From: Candidatus Thorarchaeota archaeon
GTDB lineage: Archaea; Asgardarchaeota; Thorarchaeia; Thorarchaeales; Thorarchaeaceae
Reading direction: 5' to 3'
Assembly: GCA_048882485.1 (NCBI GenBank)
Contig: JBHLRP010000002.1
Coordinates: 70,527 to 134,526, forward strand
DNA length: 64,000 nt
A model generated the notes under the pieces. It was not told the origin of the DNA. It searched no databases and saw nothing but the letters and a program-made list of their open reading frames with translations. A program made the translations under genes and the position numbers. Each line of letters opens with the position of its first letter. Within the stretch, counting starts at the first letter, position 1. Shown here piece after piece: positions 5,794 to 17,045 of the stretch.

Positions 5794-8245
5794 TTTGTCA
5801 AGTTCTTGGGTCATTAAGACTCGCCAGATGAGTGAGGCAGGGAAGGAACTTATCCTTCGTGAGGCTCTAGCTACTCATCTAAGAAGCACAAGAGCTCGGC
5901 AGATATTCCATGAAATGATTCCTGACCCCCGGCTTCTGGATGAAGTCTTGGCAGCCTTTGCATCGTTCTATTTGCAGAGCTATCAAGGAGTCCGTCTGCA
6001 TACTATTGAAGATGCTCAGAATCTGAGCATTGAAGAACAGGAGAAGATTGGTGCAGAAACAAGAGTTCAGCTGGAAAATGAAGTTCGCAAACTCCTTGGA
6101 TCGAAACAACGAGAAGAAGTAGCAGTCGGGAAATTACTCAGTGAATTCGTTATACGCTTCTGTGATGAACTTGGTAGCAGAGATCCTGCTGATGATGAAA
6201 CAGTCACAAGGACCGGAGATCTCCTCAGGGAGTATTTAGGAAAGATTCCAAATGAGTTCTCACAGAATCATGATGTTGACTTCCTCAATCAGTTGACGAG
6301 ATATGATTCAAATCTGAGGGAAGAACTATATGCCAAAGCATCTGGTCTCAAAGAAACCGCAATGTCTCTACGAGAGGAGGTCCTTCGAGAACACGAAGCA
6401 GAAGTAATAGAGATTACAGTTCTGAAAGAAGGCCTAAAGCGGATATGGGGCGAGCCAAGTTATGCCAGCGCACATATCGCTGAGTCCATGAATTATCCAG
6501 CAACAATGGGCGAAATCGCAAAGGATGTGGCAAATAGATACTGCAAACCAGCTGATGAACTGGCCACCATCAAGCGTGCTCATGAGATACGTCTAAACTT
6601 TCTGACGGCAGTTGAGACGCAATTCACAAGTTCAACCACACTTGACGACTACGAGAAGCAACTTGTCGATAAGGTGTCTGAGGATGTCGCATCAGCAATT
6701 GAAGCCAATCCGGCAAAGGCTTTCGATCTACTCTCCCATCTCTTACAAATACCGTCCACGGACATCGCTGCAGCATTAAGACGCAAGGGTCTGTCAGACC
6801 CATCTGACTTGGTCAAGGGCTTCAGAATTATGGAGGAAGCAAAGATTGAGAAAACTGAAACAGAGGGTCCTGCCATCAGCGAGGTAGAGATGGATTACTT
6901 GGAACGATCGCTCAAAGCAATAGACAAGCTTGAGAATATCTTGGAGCGACCTGTAAAAGGAGCGTTAAAGGCTCAGGGTCTCAGGGCATCAGAGCTTGAT
7001 AAGTTCACAATTGAAACTCTAGCAAAGGACCGGGACTCGCTCATTGGTTTTGAGGTCACAGTTTTGGAAGCTCTTAAGCAGAAAACCAGAGTCCCTTCTC
7101 CAGAAGATGTCAAGCGACTTCTTGAGGCGCGTGAGAAGGTGAAGCAGGGTGCACTCAGCTCTATTGGGGTGTCCTCCTCCTCAGATATAGTTCGACATCG
7201 TCGCCATGGCGAAACCATTGCGGCTCTGAGGTTCGACCTGGTATGGCATCTCACATCAGGTATCCTTACAAATCTCTCGCGTGTGGTTGAAACATATATC
7301 CGCTCCAAACAGGATCTCCTGCGCATCAAGGCTCTTCTCAAGAGTATCTATGAGAGTCCCGAGACTGACCTTCAGGCGCTTCGAGAGGAAATCCTCATCG
7401 ATTTGGCTTCTCAGAGAATCTATGAACTGAAGACGGTCTATCCTGGCTTAAAAGCCCCAGAGATCACTTCATGGATGCACGCTCGGCTTTCCAACAAGGA
7501 TATGACTGCTGCGAAAGCAGCACTTGATAGCACGCCAAGTCCTGTCTTTGAAGGTGTAATCGACACCGAGCTCGTGACAGATCAGTTGGACTTTGATAAC
7601 TATGCAATTGCGTATGATATCATGCATCGGTTCCTTAGAACTGAACGCAGGAAGAAGCTTGCCAAGGAGGAATTGGCACTCGAAGCCAAGCTTGAGGAAC
7701 AGAAAGTTGCAGAGAGCATGAAAGCCTCACTTGATGTCTTGACTTGGATTTATACTAAGAGTCAGACGGTGTTTAGAGCTATTGGGAGAGTAGGTGTCAA
7801 GGGTCTTGAATGGAACACAAACGATGATTCAAAATGTGCCAATCTCCTTGCATTCTATATCCGAACTAGTAGAGGTCGGAAGTTATGTTCAGTCTGCGGC
7901 GAAACGCCACCGGATAACAAGTGTCCAACACATAAAGCAACCAACATGATTCCGAGCAATGATATTGAGAACTTGGCAATATTTGTAATGAGGTCGATAA
8001 CTGACATAAAGCAAGGTCTCATTGGTTCAGCAGCCAAACCAGTGACCCTTACAGAAGCAAGGTCGATAGTGGACAGGGAGATTAGAGCTCTGCGCAGGAA
8101 CGGTAGGATAACAGGAAAGACAAATCTGAAGCAGCTGATGCCAGGTGATATCAATTACGTTATTGGCCCTGCAATAGCTAAAGTCATTGGAAAATACTTC
8201 AATGAATCGTTGCAGTATGCGGCTAGGCGGGTGAATTTGGCCTAG
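5786..8245 (+). CDS. Large helical hypothetical protein with C-terminal Zn-knuckle
   Basis: 819-aa ORF, GTG start after AGGAG overlapping the upstream stop; CSVC...CPTH motif. Confidence 0.75.
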   Translation: MSDLSSSWVIKTRQMSEAGKELILREALATHLRSTRARQIFHEMIPDPRLLDEVLAAFASFYLQSYQGVRLHTIEDAQNLSIEEQEKIGAETRVQLENEVRKLLGSKQREEVAVGKLLSEFVIRFCDELGSRDPADDETVTRTGDLLREYLGKIPNEFSQNHDVDFLNQLTRYDSNLREELYAKASGLKETAMSLREEVLREHEAEVIEITVLKEGLKRIWGEPSYASAHIAESMNYPATMGEIAKDVANRYCKPADELATIKRAHEIRLNFLTAVETQFTSSTTLDDYEKQLVDKVSEDVASAIEANPAKAFDLLSHLLQIPSTDIAAALRRKGLSDPSDLVKGFRIMEEAKIEKTETEGPAISEVEMDYLERSLKAIDKLENILERPVKGALKAQGLRASELDKFTIETLAKDRDSLIGFEVTVLEALKQKTRVPSPEDVKRLLEAREKVKQGALSSIGVSSSSDIVRHRRHGETIAALRFDLVWHLTSGILTNLSRVVETYIRSKQDLLRIKALLKSIYESPETDLQALREEILIDLASQRIYELKTVYPGLKAPEITSWMHARLSNKDMTAAKAALDSTPSPVFEGVIDTELVTDQLDFDNYAIAYDIMHRFLRTERRKKLAKEELALEAKLEEQKVAESMKASLDVLTWIYTKSQTVFRAIGRVGVKGLEWNTNDDSKCANLLAFYIRTSRGRKLCSVCGETPPDNKCPTHKATNMIPSNDIENLAIFVMRSITDIKQGLIGSAAKPVTLTEARSIVDREIRALRRNGRITGKTNLKQLMPGDINYVIGPAIAKVIGKYFNESLQYAARRVNLA

Positions 8246-8565
8246 AGATGACCTGTTATATTTTCGGTTATCCATTTCAAGTAGTCCTGTGAGCCTCCCT
8301 GTATTGGGATGCTAATGAACTCCGGTACATCATACGAGTGATGGGCTCTCAGCTCATTCCATAGGCTTTCCTGAAAAGTACGTTCTGTCTTGATGAACAG
8401 GATGCTTTCTTCATCATCCACGACCTTGCCCTTCCACCGGTAGATGCTCCTTATTGAAGGGACAATGTTCACACAAGCACACACCCTCGCCTCGACGAGT
8501 CGTTTTGCCAGAGCGGTAGCGTCGCTATTTGGACAAGTAGTGATCGCCAAAATGTACTCTGTCAT
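8242..8565 (-). CDS. cutA: Divalent-cation tolerance protein CutA
   Basis: ACVNIVP.I.SIYRWKGKV..D.E...IKT...HSYDVPE...YLKWI signature. Confidence 0.93.
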   Translation of the reverse strand: MTEYILAITTCPNSDATALAKRLVEARVCACVNIVPSIRSIYRWKGKVVDDEESILFIKTERTFQESLWNELRAHHSYDVPEFISIPIQGGSQDYLKWITENITGHL

Positions 8566-8658
8566 AGTTTTTCGTTAGCTACACCAAGCCATAAATCATA
8601 TGCAATATCCTATCGAGCTAGAAACGAATGTTATTATCCTGAGAATTCCAGTGTATGG

Positions 8659-9132
8659 ATGGTTTGGAAGATGAACATAGGATTTTCCCGAAGAATTGCT
8701 TCCCTTTTGCTTGCTACGACTCTCTTAGCACCATATTTCATTATCGAGCAGAATCTGCTTGGTGGAGCAACATTCAGGATCGCAGCACCGCTATGGTCAC
8801 TTGTATCCTACTCAGGTGCGTCATTAATATTCGAGTTTCCCCTGGGACTCACTCTGGACTACCTTCCATTTTGGGGAATGGGTCTCATAGTATCTGGCGT
8901 TACCTTCTTCTCAATAACTAGAGAAGATTTAACCAAGGTGGGATACGCTATTGTCATGGTCATACTATTGCTAATCCAACTTGCATATTTCATTGTCATT
9001 GGCTACCTCACTACTAGTGGCCCTCCTATCTTGATAACTCCAATTCCATTAGTTGCCGTAATGGCGTTATTGCTGACACCAGCGATAATCAGATCACCAC
9101 ATTCCTCTTGGGAGGCAAGGCCCCCTGTATGA
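8659..9132 (+). CDS. Small multi-pass membrane protein, unknown function
   Basis: 157 aa with about 4 hydrophobic segments. Confidence 0.65.
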   Translation: MVWKMNIGFSRRIASLLLATTLLAPYFIIEQNLLGGATFRIAAPLWSLVSYSGASLIFEFPLGLTLDYLPFWGMGLIVSGVTFFSITREDLTKVGYAIVMVILLLIQLAYFIVIGYLTTSGPPILITPIPLVAVMALLLTPAIIRSPHSSWEARPPV

Positions 9133-9212
9133 CATATTCATGGTATGCTTCACTTTGTAACCCCTAGTTTATATGCGAGATGCCAGCCACGCATCAATTA
9201 AGGGTGAAACTG

Positions 9213-10607
9213 TTGGGCAAAAGATTCGTTCCAAAAGGAGTAATGCCTGCATTGGTCACGCCGTTTACAAAGGATGGAGACATTCTCGAAGAAGGATTCA
9301 GACAGGTGATTGATTTCACCATAGGAAAAGGAGTGACTGGAGTCGTACCAGCTGGGACAACTGGCGAGTTCTCATATCTAAGGACAGAGGAGCGTAAGAA
9401 GCTTCTCAAGCTTGCTGTAGAGTATGTAGATGGAAGAGTCCCTGTCATTGCTGGCACCGGTCAGAATAGCACCAGAGCCACTGTAGCACTTAGCCAATAT
9501 GCGGCTGATATTGGCTGTGATGCCGCACTGATTATTTCTCCATACTATCTACGACCTGCTGACAAGGGATATTATGACCACTATGCCGAAGTTGCCAGAA
9601 AAGTAGAATTGCCCGTAGTAATGTACAATATTCCTCAATGCACACTAGGTATCCTCAACTCAAATGTTGTTGAGGATTTGGCTGAACTTGATAATATTGT
9701 TGGAATCAAAGATAGCGGTGGAAACATCGGACATACGGTTGAATTGATCCAGAAATTGAAGGGGAAGATGCCTGTATTGATTGGTCATGATGAATGCTTC
9801 CTCTCTGCTATAGCAGCTGGTGCAAGTGCTGCCATTATGGCTTCTGCGAACATAATCCCACACATCTGGCTGGAAATCATGGAGTCTGTGAAATCTGGCG
9901 ATTATGCGAATGCTGCTCAACTGCAACAGAATGCACAGACTCTGGCAAGGATAGTCACAAGGAATGGTGGTGGACCACCAGTAAAAGCAGCGCTGAAGAT
10001 GATGGGTATCAAAGCTGGTAGGAGCAGAATGCCCCTTGATACGGGCGGGACATTGACACTCGAACTCAAAGAGGAAATCCGCTTGGAACTAGAAAAGTTG
10101 GGAGTGATTGAGTCATTGACTCATCCCGCTCCTGGGCTCACCGCGATTAAGGATATTCTTCAAGAAATGGATTTGGAAATAAATGAGGCAGATACCAACT
10201 ATGGTGCGGGCTCCAACGATAAGGTCACAGTGAGCATTCTAGCTGGTTCAAAGAGAGGCTCTGTTGGTAGAGCATTTGTGACATTACTAACCACCCCGCA
10301 CGTGGGCCGAGAAGCTCTCACAGTTATTCTTGAGCCGAACTTGCCAGTGAAACCATCAAGCTTGATGTTTCCCATCAGCAAGATTGAATCTATGAGACAG
10401 GCTTCTCTCTTCTATGGACCAGTTCAGGCTGGTGCTGCACGCGCGGTTGCAGAACATCTTGAGAAGAACCTAATCCCCAAAGAGGTCCTATCGAATAATG
10501 TAATTTTGATGGCTTTGGACATAGACTTGAACACGCGTGATCGCAGAGAGATTAGAGCTGCTACTGAAAATGCAGTAAGTGCCGCTCTAAGTCAGATGTG
10601 GAGTTGA
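9213..10607 (+). CDS. DapA/NAL-family class I aldolase fused to a degenerate formaldehyde-activating enzyme (Fae) domain (paralog 1)
   Basis: ALVTPF, GTTGE, YNIP, GIKDS motifs; C-terminal LTVILEPNLPVKP...FYGPVQAGAARAVAE resembles Fae; likely TTG start at 9213 after GGGTGA (track start 9180). Confidence 0.82.
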   Translation: MGKRFVPKGVMPALVTPFTKDGDILEEGFRQVIDFTIGKGVTGVVPAGTTGEFSYLRTEERKKLLKLAVEYVDGRVPVIAGTGQNSTRATVALSQYAADIGCDAALIISPYYLRPADKGYYDHYAEVARKVELPVVMYNIPQCTLGILNSNVVEDLAELDNIVGIKDSGGNIGHTVELIQKLKGKMPVLIGHDECFLSAIAAGASAAIMASANIIPHIWLEIMESVKSGDYANAAQLQQNAQTLARIVTRNGGGPPVKAALKMMGIKAGRSRMPLDTGGTLTLELKEEIRLELEKLGVIESLTHPAPGLTAIKDILQEMDLEINEADTNYGAGSNDKVTVSILAGSKRGSVGRAFVTLLTTPHVGREALTVILEPNLPVKPSSLMFPISKIESMRQASLFYGPVQAGAARAVAEHLEKNLIPKEVLSNNVILMALDIDLNTRDRREIRAATENAVSAALSQMWS

Positions 10608-12091
10608 TGAAAATGGCGAGTCATACCTATCGATTCAAAGGTGTCTATCCTGCTCTGGTTACTCCGTTTGATGAACATGGTGTCAATGAGAAACAGTATC
10701 GACGCCTGATTGATTATACAATTGGAAAGGGTGCTACTGGATTGGTTCCATGCGGTACAACTGGCGAGTTCACCAGCATGCGATTCGAGGAGAAGGTGAA
10801 TGCTATTCGAATAGCCTGCGAAGCTGCTGCTGGACGAGTGCCAGTAGTGGCAGGTACTGGAGCCGCATATACAAATGATGTGATTAAGTTGACAAGAAGG
10901 GCTGCAGAATTTGGAGCCTCCGCAGCTCTTGTCGTAACTCCATACTTCCTCAAACCATCTACAAAGGAGGTCTATGAGCACTTCGAGAAGATAGCGAATT
11001 CATCAGAAATACCAATCATCGTGTATAACATTCCTCAGGTAACCGGGGTCATGCTTGATTGGTGGGTGATTGACGGATTGCGAGAGATTGAGAACATAAT
11101 TGGCTTGAAAGATTCAAGTGGCAATCTCGTGCATTTGACCACAGTTCTTGTTCGCAAACCGGATGAGTTTCAGGTTATGGTTGGGCACGATGAGGTAGCT
11201 CTTCCTGCACTTGCTTCGGGATGTGATGGTGCAATTCTGGCCAGCGCAAACATCTTTCCGGATCGCTACCTAAAGATGCAAGCTGCTCTCGCCACAGGTG
11301 ACCTCAAGGAGGCTCTGATAATTCAAAGAAGCATTCAGAAGACAGTCCGGATTTTTGTCAATCGAGGTGGAGGTCTAGCCATCAAGGCGGGACTAAACAT
11401 GATGGGCATTCCTGTGGGATCGGCTCGTCGCCCTCTACAGGAAAGTGATTCTTTGAGATACGAAGACATTGATGAACTCAGGACTTGTTTGGAAGACCTT
11501 CAATTGATTGAGCGCGGACTTGTGACCTTTAAAATGGGTGAAAGAGAGCTTCTGGCTGAAAGCTATCCAAAGGCGGTGGGACTAGTACCGAATGTTGTAG
11601 AAGATTTGACATTACTACATGGCGAGGCATTGGCAGGAGAAGGGCAAGAGGTGGCACACGTCGACCTAGTTATGGGAGTTAGAGACGGACCGCTTGGTGC
11701 TGCGTTGAAGAATGCTGGAAAGATTGTCGAAGGCGTTCATTCATCAAACATCATCAAGGACCTAGAACCGCTTACTGTGTTTGCACCAACTGTGACTATA
11801 ACGAGTGAGAAGCAGAAGAAGATGGTCATGGAAGTCGCGCAGAGAGCTGTAGCCGATGCTGTTAGACGCACAGTTACAGATGGAGTAATCCCTGAGGAAC
11901 TCATTCCAGACCTTGTTATCGCAGTTAATACATTTGTGCATCCAAATGCTGTTAATCCAAAGAGAGTACACATAAACAACTTCCGAGCTGTTCGCTTTGC
12001 GATTCGAAGAGCAGTTGAGGGGCGACAAACTGTGGAGGAGATTATTCAGCGAAAGGAGTCTGCACGCCATCCATTTGCATATAATCCATGA
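10607..12091 (+). CDS. DapA/NAL-family class I aldolase fused to a Fae domain (paralog 2)
   Basis: ALVTPF, GTTGE, YNIP, GLKDS; C-terminal GEALAGEGQEVAHVDLVMG...AQRAVADAV..GVIP...RHPFAYNP matches Fae; ATG at 10607 overlaps the upstream TGA. Confidence 0.85.
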   Translation: MKMASHTYRFKGVYPALVTPFDEHGVNEKQYRRLIDYTIGKGATGLVPCGTTGEFTSMRFEEKVNAIRIACEAAAGRVPVVAGTGAAYTNDVIKLTRRAAEFGASAALVVTPYFLKPSTKEVYEHFEKIANSSEIPIIVYNIPQVTGVMLDWWVIDGLREIENIIGLKDSSGNLVHLTTVLVRKPDEFQVMVGHDEVALPALASGCDGAILASANIFPDRYLKMQAALATGDLKEALIIQRSIQKTVRIFVNRGGGLAIKAGLNMMGIPVGSARRPLQESDSLRYEDIDELRTCLEDLQLIERGLVTFKMGERELLAESYPKAVGLVPNVVEDLTLLHGEALAGEGQEVAHVDLVMGVRDGPLGAALKNAGKIVEGVHSSNIIKDLEPLTVFAPTVTITSEKQKKMVMEVAQRAVADAVRRTVTDGVIPEELIPDLVIAVNTFVHPNAVNPKRVHINNFRAVRFAIRRAVEGRQTVEEIIQRKESARHPFAYNP

Positions 12092-13217: not shown

Positions 13218-16200
13218 ATGATGAAAAAGGAAAGCAGCGAGAATCTACCAGGAAGAGAGCGCGTTGAAAAGATAGGCTCTAACTGGACAGAAATGATTAA
13301 GCTTCACAAACAGGCGGCAGAGTCCTATTTAGACCAGAAAAAGGTGAGGGAAGCCGCAGGAGCACACAAAAAGCTTGGATATGCTTATGCGCAGTTTGCA
13401 GAAACAGTTGATACTTCAGGTGAATATATAGACCAGACCAGAAGTGCTATTGATGCCTTCAGAAAAGCTGCGACTCTCTATAAACAGATAGGCAACAGGC
13501 AGGAGGAGTTGGAATGCATTGGAGAAGTCTTCTTCTTCAGCGGGTCTGTAGCAGGGTCCAATATGGAGCTTAAGAAGGCGTTTAGTAAATCTCGTGAGCA
13601 CTTTATTGAATCAAACGAACTCTTTACCAAGGAGAATGATCAAAAGGGTCGAGCGCGGACTTTGAGTCGTGCTGCATTGGTTTCATTCTACCTAATTCTT
13701 CAATCTAACGACAAACAAGAGGCTCAACGGATTTCTCAGGAAGGCATAGCCATTGCAGGAGAATCTTGGGAGCTTTCAAAGGATGTTGGAAATGTTCAAT
13801 CTCTTGCTGAATCATTGTATGCTGCATTTTCTCTATGTGTGGCTCATATGTTTGTTGCACCTTATAGAGGGGATGAGAATTGGAAGGAATACAACAAGAA
13901 ACTCCTATGGAAGTGTGATGAGAGTATAAAGGCTATCGAGGATTGTGACAATCCTCTTTTCATTAGTATGGTTCACCTTGCGGCCGGTACCCTATACACC
14001 TTCTTTGGATTTAATTTCATTAAGCATGATAGAGAACAGAGAGAATACACTGAGAAGGGTTTTCAGTTATTGGAGAAGGCTCTAATCTTCGCAAAGAGAG
14101 CAAATAATAAAATCTTGATATTAACTTCGCTATGGTGGTTGAACTGGAATGCTCTTAATACAGCAAGATACGAGCACATCCAGAAACGAATTTTCGAAGA
14201 CATCTGGCTTATGGAAGAGGCCGGAAGAATATTTGCAGAATCATACTCTTTTTGGTTTCATGCTGGAAAAGTCATGCCAGGTTACTGTTATGCAAACTTG
14301 CTTCGGATGAGTTATTACACTACTGCTCAGAGGAAGGCTTTTGCTGAGAAAGGAATCGAATATACAATGGAGTCCATGAAGAAGGGAACCCCCGGACCAA
14401 CAGATGTTTGGCTATATTCGTCATTAACATGGTCACATTCACTACTAGCTACTTTCGCTGATACGAAAGATAAGCGGAATCAACACGCCCAGAAAATGCT
14501 TCAATACGCTCGAAGGGCTGAAGAAATCTGTGAGGAATTTGATGGAGATTGGACTCGAGCTGCTGGGTATTCTTCCACTTACGGAGCCTACAAGACTCTC
14601 GCAGACATTGCAGAAAGTGAGAAAGAAAGAATCAAGCATCTATCAGCTGCAATAGATGCCGCTAGAAAGTATAATCAACATCCAGTGGAAAGCCGTACCG
14701 GCATCGTAGCATCCCAAATTCGGCTAGGGCTTCTCTACCAAGAGCTTGGTATTTTGGCGACAAAGATCGAACCGCTTAGAAAGGCAAAAGAAACTTTTCT
14801 AAGTGTAATCAAGGAGAGTCGTGATAGGGGATATCATTTCTATGAGGCTGCGGGTCACGAATATGCTGCACATATAGAAGATCGACTTGGCAATCATATT
14901 GCTTCCGCTGAACACTACGAAAAGGCTCAGGAGGCTCACACAGAGTCGTTGAGAACCATTGACTTCAAACCTATGAAAGAGAGGGTAGAGGAGAAAGCAA
15001 ACTATGCTTGTGCATGGAACATGATTGAGAAGGCTAAAGCCTTTCACAGGATGTCAAATTACCAAAAAGCTAAGGAAAACTATGAGAATGCATGTGAAAT
15101 TCTGAAAGAACTACCGAGCTTTGATTATGAAGCATATTACTACTCTGCTTGGGCTATGCAGGAAGACGCAGAACAACTCAGTAGGCAGGAAGAACATGAG
15201 GATGCTTTGGAAAGATATGAAGCAACCAGAAAGAGCTTCGATAGCGCGATAAAATCACTGGAAGAAACCTCCACTTCTTTGAAAAAGAGATATGAGAAAG
15301 AAAGAATCGAGAAACTCAAAAAAGTAGCCAAGGTGAGAATGAACTACTGTTCCGGTAGAGCAGATATCGAAAGAGCAAGAATCCTAGGAAAGCAGGGTGA
15401 ACACCTAGCAGCTGCAGAGAGATTTGCTTCAGCGGCTTCTGAGTTCAAGGATGTTCTAACTCGATTCAGGATTAAAACGGAACGAATGGAGTTGGAGGCT
15501 GTATACAACCTCTGCAGAGCTTGGGAAAGTATGGAGCTTGCAGAGAACTACGATGACGCAGACAGGTTCGCAGAAGCAGCAAGCCTATTCACCGAAGCCA
15601 GCAAGCTCTTCACCGATACCAAGCTGAAGTTGTTAGCCAAAGGTAACTCAGCTTTTTGTAAGGCTTTAAAAAACGGGTGTGAATTTGACGAGTCAACAGA
15701 AACAGATGTCAAAGCATCACTCTATCCAAAAATCAAGACGACGCTTAGAAAGGCAGCGTCTGCCTATCGGAAAGGTGGTTACGATGGCGGAGCCGATTGG
15801 GCTCTTGCAACATCTTCCTATTTCGACGCGACATGGCACCTAATCAAAACGGACGAAGAGTTGGATATTGACAAAAGGAAGAAACTCCTCAAAATCGCGA
15901 CTAAGTATCTGAAATCAGCAGCTGAGCTTTTCAGTAAATCAGGTCACAAACACAAGGAGAGGGAGATACTAGGACGCTTAGACATGGTCGAAAAGGAAGA
16001 GCGTATTCTAGTTTCAGCCTTAGGCACGATAACAGAGCCATCTATCTCTAGAAGCACATTAGGCATTGTCGCCCCTTCATGTCCTACAGAAACCAGCTCC
16101 TCTCCAAGAATAGGGGAAGTTCGTCAGTTCACTGAAAGAGCATCACAGGTCAGAATAGAAACGAGTCAGAGAAAATACGAACTCATTTACGAGAACCTAC

Positions 16201-17045
16201 TTGAAGAAAGCGCAAGTATTCAAAGAAAGGAATGCAGGGTTGGCATCGCCCAGATAGGAGTTTCCAAGACAAGCGATATCCTAAATGAATTCTATGAGAT
16301 GAAGACTGATGGCTTTCTAGGTCTTAGGCAGGATAAAGTCGAAGCTGTAAAATCCAGAGTCATAAGCATGATAGAATTCGCCTACAGAGAAGGTGTGAAC
16401 ATCCTACTATTCCCTGAAATGACCGTCGACCTCAATTACAACGAATTACTAGAAGACATAATCCGCCTAGCTAAGGAATACCGTATGTACATTATCCCAG
16501 GATCATATCATGACGATGATACAAAACAGAACCTCAGTACGGTTGTAGGACCAGAGGGAATCCTTTGGAAACAGGAGAAGCACATTCCAGCTACTATTCA
16601 CTATAAAGGTGAAAGGTTCACTGAGGAAATAGGATCCGGAACGCTCCCGAGGAGAACGTTCGTTTGTGACACAGAGTTTGGAAGGATTGCAATTGTTATA
16701 TGTCGAGACTTTCTGGACATGGACCTAAGGGTGGAGCTAAAGAACTTTGAACCTCCAGTGGATCTAGTGTTCAATCCAGCATTCACCCCGGTTACAGCAG
16801 ACTTCAAGGCAGCCCACTTTGATGCTCGAAGATCCATCTACGCCTATTGTTTCTTTGCAAATATTGCTGAGTTCGGAGATTCGCTCATTTACACTCCTGA
16901 AAAGGAACGTGTCGAAAGAAGTATACCACCGAGGGAGGAAGGTCTAATCTACAAGGATGTGCAGCTTTTCCAACTTCGTTCAGAACGCAAAAAGTGGGAA
17001 AAGAAGCAGGAGAAACAAAGGTCGTTTATACAAAGTACAAGATGA
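13218..17045 (+). CDS. TPR-like alpha-solenoid protein with C-terminal carbon-nitrogen hydrolase (nitrilase) domain
   Basis: About 950 aa of A..Y.KA-type helical repeats; C-terminal VGIAQ, LLFPEM (Glu), QEKH (Lys), ICRDF (Cys) catalytic triad. Confidence 0.8.
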   Translation: MMKKESSENLPGRERVEKIGSNWTEMIKLHKQAAESYLDQKKVREAAGAHKKLGYAYAQFAETVDTSGEYIDQTRSAIDAFRKAATLYKQIGNRQEELECIGEVFFFSGSVAGSNMELKKAFSKSREHFIESNELFTKENDQKGRARTLSRAALVSFYLILQSNDKQEAQRISQEGIAIAGESWELSKDVGNVQSLAESLYAAFSLCVAHMFVAPYRGDENWKEYNKKLLWKCDESIKAIEDCDNPLFISMVHLAAGTLYTFFGFNFIKHDREQREYTEKGFQLLEKALIFAKRANNKILILTSLWWLNWNALNTARYEHIQKRIFEDIWLMEEAGRIFAESYSFWFHAGKVMPGYCYANLLRMSYYTTAQRKAFAEKGIEYTMESMKKGTPGPTDVWLYSSLTWSHSLLATFADTKDKRNQHAQKMLQYARRAEEICEEFDGDWTRAAGYSSTYGAYKTLADIAESEKERIKHLSAAIDAARKYNQHPVESRTGIVASQIRLGLLYQELGILATKIEPLRKAKETFLSVIKESRDRGYHFYEAAGHEYAAHIEDRLGNHIASAEHYEKAQEAHTESLRTIDFKPMKERVEEKANYACAWNMIEKAKAFHRMSNYQKAKENYENACEILKELPSFDYEAYYYSAWAMQEDAEQLSRQEEHEDALERYEATRKSFDSAIKSLEETSTSLKKRYEKERIEKLKKVAKVRMNYCSGRADIERARILGKQGEHLAAAERFASAASEFKDVLTRFRIKTERMELEAVYNLCRAWESMELAENYDDADRFAEAASLFTEASKLFTDTKLKLLAKGNSAFCKALKNGCEFDESTETDVKASLYPKIKTTLRKAASAYRKGGYDGGADWALATSSYFDATWHLIKTDEELDIDKRKKLLKIATKYLKSAAELFSKSGHKHKEREILGRLDMVEKEERILVSALGTITEPSISRSTLGIVAPSCPTETSSSPRIGEVRQFTERASQVRIETSQRKYELIYENLLEESASIQRKECRVGIAQIGVSKTSDILNEFYEMKTDGFLGLRQDKVEAVKSRVISMIEFAYREGVNILLFPEMTVDLNYNELLEDIIRLAKEYRMYIIPGSYHDDDTKQNLSTVVGPEGILWKQEKHIPATIHYKGERFTEEIGSGTLPRRTFVCDTEFGRIAIVICRDFLDMDLRVELKNFEPPVDLVFNPAFTPVTADFKAAHFDARRSIYAYCFFANIAEFGDSLIYTPEKERVERSIPPREEGLIYKDVQLFQLRSERKKWEKKQEKQRSFIQSTR

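Follow-up and report, generated by a model that had tools for sequence, protein, structure and literature searches.

Complementary Fae half-domains in a tandem pair of aldolase-Fae fusion genes from a Thorarchaeota archaeon: a candidate heteromeric aldolase for carrier-bound formaldehyde

Fae, the formaldehyde-activating enzyme, is reportedly a homopentamer with its active sites in the cleft between adjacent identical subunits; His22 is said to be the acid catalyst, and Gln88 and the C-terminal arm are said to rearrange on binding. We take the PNLPxKP loop and the GPxQ motif, which holds Gln88, to be the elements of its pterin pocket. To our knowledge, Fae-Hps (NF009833) is the only Fae fusion that has been described. 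Here, we describe two adjacent genes, A and B, in a stretch of 64,000 nucleotides from a Candidatus Thorarchaeota archaeon (contig JBHLRP010000002.1; hereafter the window, to whose full length unprefixed positions refer). Each encodes an aldolase barrel of the dihydrodipicolinate synthase (DHDPS) family followed by a Fae domain, and the conserved Fae motifs are divided between the two. The pair recalls Fae-Hps in that Fae is joined to an enzyme of the aldolase type, which would make or use formaldehyde, in an archaeon that uses tetrahydromethanopterin (H4MPT). It differs in the C-terminal position of Fae, in having a Schiff-base barrel of the DHDPS family where Hps has the orotidine monophosphate decarboxylase fold, and in its split Fae site. 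When A and B are compared with NF009833, the Fae part alone matches, at 74.9 and 98.4 bits, respectively, against a cut-off of 274. Fae-Hps itself is carried by other Asgard families, as open reading frames (ORFs) of ~400-430 residues with Fae E-values near 1e-70.

Three further systems invite comparison. With DapA (TIGR00674; Protein Data Bank entries 1DHP, 2YXG and 1XKY) the barrels share the fold, the GTTGE motif, the tyrosine and the Schiff-base lysine; they differ from it in lacking Arg138, in having no DapB or aspartate-semialdehyde dehydrogenase around them, in the added Fae domain and in their separate clade. PanB would carry out the same net reaction as the one proposed below if pyruvate took the place of 2-oxoisovalerate, but its fold is unrelated and its mechanism is metal-dependent; a replacement of PanB by the pair was considered and rejected because the genome keeps a strong PanB of its own. 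E. coli RhmA has a promiscuous activity, used by the synthetic homoserine cycle in engineered methanol assimilation, that joins pyruvate and formaldehyde to 4-hydroxy-2-oxobutanoate (HOB); HOB is then transaminated to homoserine, and a review calls it a non-native metabolite (PMC8879981). That aldolase step is the same chemistry as we propose for A and B, with the difference that A/B would be a dedicated natural enzyme working with carrier-bound formaldehyde. Our literature search found no publication on a DHDPS-Fae fusion. We conclude that A/B is a widespread and consistently mislabelled variant of Fae fused to a formaldehyde-handling aldolase.

The gene pair and its Fae half-domains

Gene A (9213-10607) encodes a DHDPS-family barrel and a shortened Fae domain without His22 and Asp24, and gene B (10607-12091) encodes a barrel of the same family and a Fae domain that has the catalytic strand and the C-terminal arm, without the pterin-pocket loop; these and all features of the pair given below lie on the plus strand. 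The ORF of A spans 9180-10607 and yields 475 residues from ATG 9180, or 464 from TTG 9213, the start used in public gene calls. That of B (10598/10607-12091) yields 497 or 494 residues, with GTG 10598 and ATG 10613 as alternative starts to ATG 10607. The stop codon of A (TGA, 10605-10607) and the start codon of B (ATG, 10607-10609) overlap in TGATG at 10605-10609, and a GGAG stands ahead of the start of B at 10600-10603. Over their full length the two proteins are 34% identical. The original prediction had described two coupled genes with this overlap, each a DapA-type barrel with GTTGE, tyrosine and the lysine of KDS plus a C-terminal Fae domain; the overlap coordinates, the Pfam profiles and the motifs all agree with it.

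Whether the C-terminal domains match Fae at all is answered by Pfam (PF08714, threshold 27 bits): A scores 96.1 bits (E 2.7e-27) over profile positions 11-135 of 159, and B 118.4 bits (E 3.9e-34) over positions 2-158. Under the stricter NCBIfam Fae model TIGR03126 (cut-off 118.05), B lies above at 127 and A below at 87.1, and the match to Fae of Methylorubrum extorquens (1Y5Y) has an E-value of 5.7e-23 for B and 2.1e-11 for A. For the comparison of motifs, 1Y5Y and a canonical Asgard Fae-Hps served as references. The A half-domain (10218-10592) retains LEPNLPVKP at 10329-10355 and FYGPVQ, with the Gln88 equivalent, at 10410-10427. Its segment NDKVTVSILAG (10215-10247) carries Thr/Ser in place of His22/Asp24, and the protein ends ~25 residues early, with no C-terminal Fae arm. 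The B half-domain (11621-12088) retains GEALAGEGQEVAHVDL at 11621-11668, in which EVAHVDL provides the His22 and Asp24 equivalents, as well as TFVHP (11930-11944), NNFRA (11975-11989) and the arm ARHPFAYNP (12062-12088); at 11750-11782, IIKDLEPLTVF replaces the PNLPxKP segment by deletion and divergence. The His22/Asp24 strand is thus present in B (EVAHVDL) and not in A (KVTVSIL), so that the pair has it jointly. The alignment to 1Y5Y bears out what had been predicted of both proteins, namely that B keeps the AHVDL strand and the HPF arm without the PNL..KP segment, and that A keeps FYGPVQ without the AH.D motif and the HPF arm.

These complementary losses hold throughout the two types in alignments of 132 A-type and 122 B-type sequences. 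A-types have only the EPNLxVKP loop and GPxQ, and B-types only the GEAL..AHxD strand, VFVHP, NNF/Y and the ARHPF arm, and within each type the residues that remain vary hardly or not at all. The B protein of the window still has the glutamine of GPxQ (MEVAQ), while B-types in general are without GPxQ. Compared with M. extorquens Fae (1Y5Y/1Y60), both domains match and the pair jointly holds the complete set of conserved motifs, but neither domain is complete by itself: A-types lack His22, Asp24 and the arm, and B-types lack PNLPxKP and GPxQ.

The pairing is as regular as the losses. Fae matches occur in 79 of the 86 species genomes that represent the window's family, nearly always exactly two per genome, the shorter A-type match lying ~1.4 kb upstream of the full-length B-type match on the same strand; where a genome has one match or none, it is in most cases incomplete or in fragments. 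In a set of 1.84 billion representative proteins, full-length DHDPS-Fae fusions form only ~15-20 clusters at 50% identity. Wherever the contig of a divergent A- or B-type cluster is long enough, the partner type adjoins, A and then B, overlapping or only a few bases apart. This adjacency is found in seven lineages outside Thorarchaeota (loci L041-L043, L050-L054 and L058/59) and in the Asgard families f5 and f28. All nine further pairs whose sequence covers the motifs have the same complementary losses, and those of f5 and f28 match the losses in the window; loss, gene order and tight coupling together recur in at least 10 lineages. A-then-B pairs are thus present in the window's family, in f5 and f28 and in Korarchaeota-labelled lineages, and the degenerate types, contrary to what would have refuted the original prediction, are not usually single genes. 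We found neither an A-type nor a B-type gene alone; both were seen only as adjacent A-then-B pairs.

An aldolase-Fae fusion occurs in 194 of 400 Asgard species genomes, paired in the window's family, f5 and f28, and as a single gene in f4, f13, f14, f21, f22, f30 and f32. In all seven of the latter families the single-copy fusion has AHxD, the (E/Q)PN..KP loop, GPxQ, VFVHP, NN.KA and the RHP arm. The idea of a heteromer was thus checked on two expectations, that degenerate types never stand alone and that single forms are complete, and both held. When the barrel domains are placed in a maximum-likelihood tree, all B-types fall into a single clade (94/92), with members labelled Thorarchaeota, Korarchaeota and Anaerolineae, which argues that the duplication is old and that the pair travelled as a unit. 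Public names of the divergent pair lineages are Korarchaeota/Thermoproteota and, in one case, Anaerolineae bacterium. The pairs at L058/L059:7528-10479 and L053:2777-5735 lie on contigs of 63-297 kb, and their protein cluster bears the Anaerolineae label; a correct label would mean that the pair has passed into Bacteria. In a lineage from soda-lake sediment (L042:1655-2788, plus strand), the B-type barrel lacks GTTGE, the tyrosine and the Schiff-base lysine, with CTSDVGEF, NHNV and GILDA in their places, and the AHVDL of its Fae domain is kept; judged from these residues, one barrel of that pair seems dead.

Because the degenerate types occur only in pairs and the single forms are always complete, the reading of A and B as an obligate heteromer with one composite Fae site is strongly supported by sequence comparison. 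We propose that A and B are the two subunits of one hetero-oligomeric enzyme, each consisting of an aldolase barrel and half a Fae site. The Fae domain of A would give the EPNLxVKP loop and GPxQ, and that of B the His22/Asp24 strand and the C-terminal arm. Given the reported structure of Fae, these two sets may lie on opposite faces of the subunit interface, so one A-B interface could rebuild one complete site for tetrahydromethanopterin and formaldehyde. In the ancestral single-gene homo-oligomer, such a site would have stood at every interface; after its duplication, each copy may have kept just the face still in use.

Aldolase barrels, proposed reaction and the homoserine node

The barrel of A matches Pfam DHDPS (PF00701) over residues 19-287 (9234-10040; E 5e-76), with GTTGEF at 9354-9371, PYY at 9537-9557, YNIPQCT at 9624-9644 and GIKDSGG, which holds the Schiff-base lysine, at 9702-9722. 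That of B (10634-11458; E 3.5e-74) has GTTGEF at 10754-10771, PYF at 10937-10957, YNIPQVT at 11024-11044 and GLKDSSG, again with the lysine, at 11102-11122. Both therefore have what marks the superfamily of class I pyruvate-dependent aldolases: the TIM-barrel profile, GTTGEF, the tyrosine and the Schiff-base lysine. Their best sequence matches in the Protein Data Bank are DHDPS enzymes (1DHP, 2YXG and 1XKY) and 2-keto-3-deoxy sugar-acid aldolases of the YagE type.

The public label is nonetheless misleading. A and B score 228.7 and 230.4 bits with the NCBIfam dapA equivalog TIGR00674, above its cut-off of 206.15, which explains why the great majority of public records are named DapA; a few are named formaldehyde-activating enzyme or H4MPT hydro-lyase, and none of the names encountered denotes the fusion. 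DHDPS structures have YN(V/I)P(S/G)R(T/S), in which the arginine (Arg138 in E. coli numbering) is the residue that binds aspartate semialdehyde. At this position A has Cys and B has Val, and the arginine is missing throughout the aligned A-types and B-types. No DapB_C candidate was found in the organism's own genome, which is 90.5% complete, and none of 16 genus relatives has an aspartate-semialdehyde dehydrogenase. Two weak and nearly equal Semialdhyde_dhC matches (~100 bits) in the genome lie at contig ends (C77:10763-11185 and C35:32638-33060) and may be duplicated ends or contamination, the contamination estimate being 5.8%. The only other DHDPS-family gene of the genome encodes a 302-residue protein of the GNTGEF type on a different contig. 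In the barrel tree, all fusion barrels fall in one clade (100/99), separate from plain DapA. On these grounds (the lost arginine, the missing DapB, the relatives without the dehydrogenase and the separate clade), an identity as DapA (EC 4.3.3.7) was rejected, and the residues and the tree support an assignment of both barrels as class I, Schiff-base pyruvate-type aldolases other than dihydrodipicolinate synthase.

The reaction that we consider most likely is HOB + H4MPT <-> pyruvate + methylene-H4MPT. The barrel lysine would carry the aldol step, and formaldehyde would be passed to or from the Fae site without release. Formaldehyde as the aldehyde, HOB as the substrate and channelling as the mode of transfer are what we infer; for the first two, the gene neighbourhoods that lead to the homoserine node (below) give indirect support. 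As far as we know, formaldehyde is the one known substrate of Fae, and HOB is the only compound from which a pyruvate Schiff-base aldolase would obtain it; we name HOB because it is the sole pyruvate aldol product that would yield Fae's substrate. The genome provides a setting for such a reaction. As had been asked of it, it holds an H4MPT pathway, encoding Mch, Mtd and Mer, so methylene-H4MPT is a live metabolite. The Fae domains of A and B are its only ones; no canonical Fae or Fae-Hps was found in the whole family of the window, although other Asgard families have it. Taken whole, our best explanation, a hetero-oligomer of A and B whose composite Fae site couples HOB and H4MPT to pyruvate and methylene-H4MPT, has in our judgement an even chance of being right.

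As to direction, cleavage of HOB with capture of the C1 unit and supply of HOB from pyruvate and a C1 unit appear about equally likely. Cleavage would agree with the role generally assigned to Fae and Fae-Hps and with the oxidative direction in which aldehyde oxidoreductases usually work; uptake genes beside the pair in non-Asgard lineages (L050 and L053) also speak for it. In favour of synthesis are the very strong conservation of the gene that we call X and what appear to be two alternative routes of supply.

Gene X encodes a protein of 426-431 residues with 64-77% identity across Asgard families; of 400 Asgard species genomes, 226 have it. In families of the Lokiarchaeial type, X (427 residues) always precedes the single fusion, directly upstream in f13 and f22. 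In f22, 79 genomes have both X and the fusion, 3 the fusion only, 2 X only and 51 neither, so that 79 of the 84 holding either hold both. The organism of the window has a 64%-identical homologue elsewhere in its genome, on contig C9 (C9:52482-53774; L060:8483-9778, plus strand), and other X loci are L055:7683-8966, L071:970-2253 and L075:5444-6724. X also occurs in f8, f11 and f21, of which f8 and f11 are free of the fusion. In f11 it stands first in a tight operon with a class I/II aminotransferase, homoserine dehydrogenase and an aldehyde:ferredoxin oxidoreductase, and two of the three loci examined have a second aminotransferase. In f8, X adjoins the first aminotransferase, and the dehydrogenase-oxidoreductase pair is 6 kb off. 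These loci are L071:970-7672 (plus), L070:2178-8798 (minus), L072:4580-9926 (plus), and L073:67-1969 with 7916-10760.

Homoserine dehydrogenase itself is distributed unevenly. It was not found in the organism's own genome and was found in 3 of 85 genomes of its family; the fusion-rich families f1, f4, f13, f14 and f28 are essentially without it, and 17 of 23 fusion-free families have it, counts that come from related genomes and not from independent samples. Together, the neighbourhood data point to a node of HOB and homoserine. In the operon of X, aspartate (formed by transamination in the loci that have the second aminotransferase) would be converted to aspartate semialdehyde by the oxidoreductase, then to homoserine by the dehydrogenase and lastly to HOB by the aminotransferase, and X, to go by gene order, would act on HOB. 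Such a ferredoxin-dependent route from aspartate through aspartate semialdehyde and homoserine to HOB may bypass aspartate kinase and aspartate-semialdehyde dehydrogenase. The aldolase-Fae enzyme would link HOB to pyruvate and methylene-H4MPT with no need of the aminotransferase. We suggest, tentatively and with less confidence than we have in the enzyme itself, that Asgard archaea use HOB as a real metabolite, reached either through the aldolase-Fae enzyme (split into A and B in Thorarchaeota) or through the aspartate/ferredoxin route, and then handled by X.

X belongs to no Pfam or NCBIfam family, and a protein-atlas search gave no lead to its function. An AlphaFold2 model from an alignment of 18 sequences has a helical N-terminal domain and a TIM barrel (pLDDT 77.7, pTM 0.81). 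A Foldseek search of the Protein Data Bank with this model returned no match at E<=0.001, and the top VIA-align match, the large subunit of glutamate mutase (Z 12.2 over 254 residues, root-mean-square deviation 4.6), is tied with many generic TIM barrels. The gene divergent from X and its neighbour for a riboflavin S-component of the energy-coupling factor type on contig C9 (L060:6167-7660, minus strand) is the best of the ThrC-like genes in the genome (TIGR00260, 205 bits, above the cut-off), fused to a C-terminal PadR winged-helix domain. This neighbourhood of ThrC and X recurs across the genus. The ThrC-PadR protein may be a transcription regulator with a pyridoxal phosphate domain and not a threonine synthase.

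Several observations weigh against our best explanation. No ThrB above the cut-off was found in 17 genus genomes, including the organism's own, and no MetX or O-acetylhomoserine sulfhydrylase above the cut-offs in its own genome, so that no standard use of homoserine is visible there; a standard anabolic route from homoserine is accordingly not supported, and metabolism probably does not stop at homoserine. Nor do the fusion and homoserine dehydrogenase strictly exclude one another, as 35 genomes of f22 have both (47 have the fusion only, 36 the dehydrogenase only and 17 neither). The fusion occurs without X (E<=1e-30) in f4, f14, f28 and f5. One pair lineage is labelled as an Anaerolineae bacterium. 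Lastly, gene neighbourhoods outside Asgard vary: L050 has a peptide ATP-binding cassette (ABC) transporter, and L053 has genes for the use of sugars.

The L050 locus (L050:1-14594) has a stand-alone third DHDPS gene and an ABC transporter of the Opp/Dpp type, then the A/B pair, and downstream of it a split class III aminotransferase, a CoA-transferase and an acyl-CoA dehydrogenase; it looks like a catabolic locus. In the window, the neighbours of the pair are a 107-residue ORF at 8242-8565 (minus strand), a membrane protein at 8659-9132 and a 1275-residue ORF at 13218-17045 (plus strand), and no functional lead for the pair was seen among these three. By eye, the 107-residue ORF reads as CutA-like. 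Between gene B and the 1275-residue ORF there is 1.1 kb without a long ORF.

Competing explanations

In the alternative that survives best, A and B still form a heteromeric class I aldolase, but one that acts on another substrate, with a different 2-oxo acid as donor or with an acceptor such as glyoxylate or glycolaldehyde. Its composite Fae part would then serve regulation or scavenging by binding H4MPT or a different pterin, outside the main reaction. The substrate of such a barrel is not readable from its sequence, the closest solved relatives being both DHDPS and YagE-type aldolases, and the sugar and peptide uptake genes in non-Asgard neighbourhoods would fit a different substrate, as would the L042 B-type protein that has lost its barrel residues and kept its Fae strand. 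However, the catalytic and pocket motifs of Fae are under strong selection across 40-50% divergence, always with one complete set per enzyme, a pattern more in keeping with a functional site than with a relic. The link of X and homoserine dehydrogenase in gene neighbourhoods points to a four-carbon node, and among pyruvate aldol products the four-carbon 4-hydroxy-2-oxo acid alone yields formaldehyde. We therefore regard another substrate as rather unlikely, though a serious possibility.

It is less probable still that the two paralogues work as independent enzymes without co-assembly, their Fae domains either decaying as relics or each put to a new use. It is true that each barrel looks catalytically intact by itself. 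Separate decay, however, would not leave exactly one copy of each Fae element, and it sits badly with retained motifs that hardly vary within a type, with the same losses, order and coupling in at least 10 lineages, and with the absence of any lone A- or B-type gene beside single forms that are complete in seven families of seven. We consider independent enzymes improbable, and A and B as subunits of one enzyme remain the reading that we prefer.

That A and B could be true 4-hydroxy-tetrahydrodipicolinate synthases of lysine biosynthesis with an accessory domain is hardly credible, for although both exceed the dapA equivalog cut-off and nearly all public records carry that name, Arg138 is replaced in both types throughout, DapB is missing from the genome and aspartate-semialdehyde dehydrogenase from 16 of 16 genus relatives, and the fusion barrels form a clade of their own apart from plain DapA.

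Significance for Asgard metabolism

Asgard archaea are the closest archaeal relatives of eukaryotes, and about half of the species sampled (194 of 400) carry the fusion. Owing to the DapA labels, metabolic reconstructions credit these archaea with a step of lysine biosynthesis that is probably absent from them, and overlook a connection of the H4MPT-bound C1 pool with C3/C4 metabolism. The pair is also a clear case from nature of two paralogues sharing out an active site that lies between subunits; since sister lineages still have the ancestor-like form with its site undivided, this evolutionary step is directly testable. If our proposal is true, a ring-type active site has been split between two paralogues, and the pair would be a natural enzyme for the carbon-carbon bond between pyruvate and carrier-bound formaldehyde, the counterpart of the engineered step in the homoserine cycle. 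It would then constitute a new entry to, or exit from, the H4MPT C1 pool.

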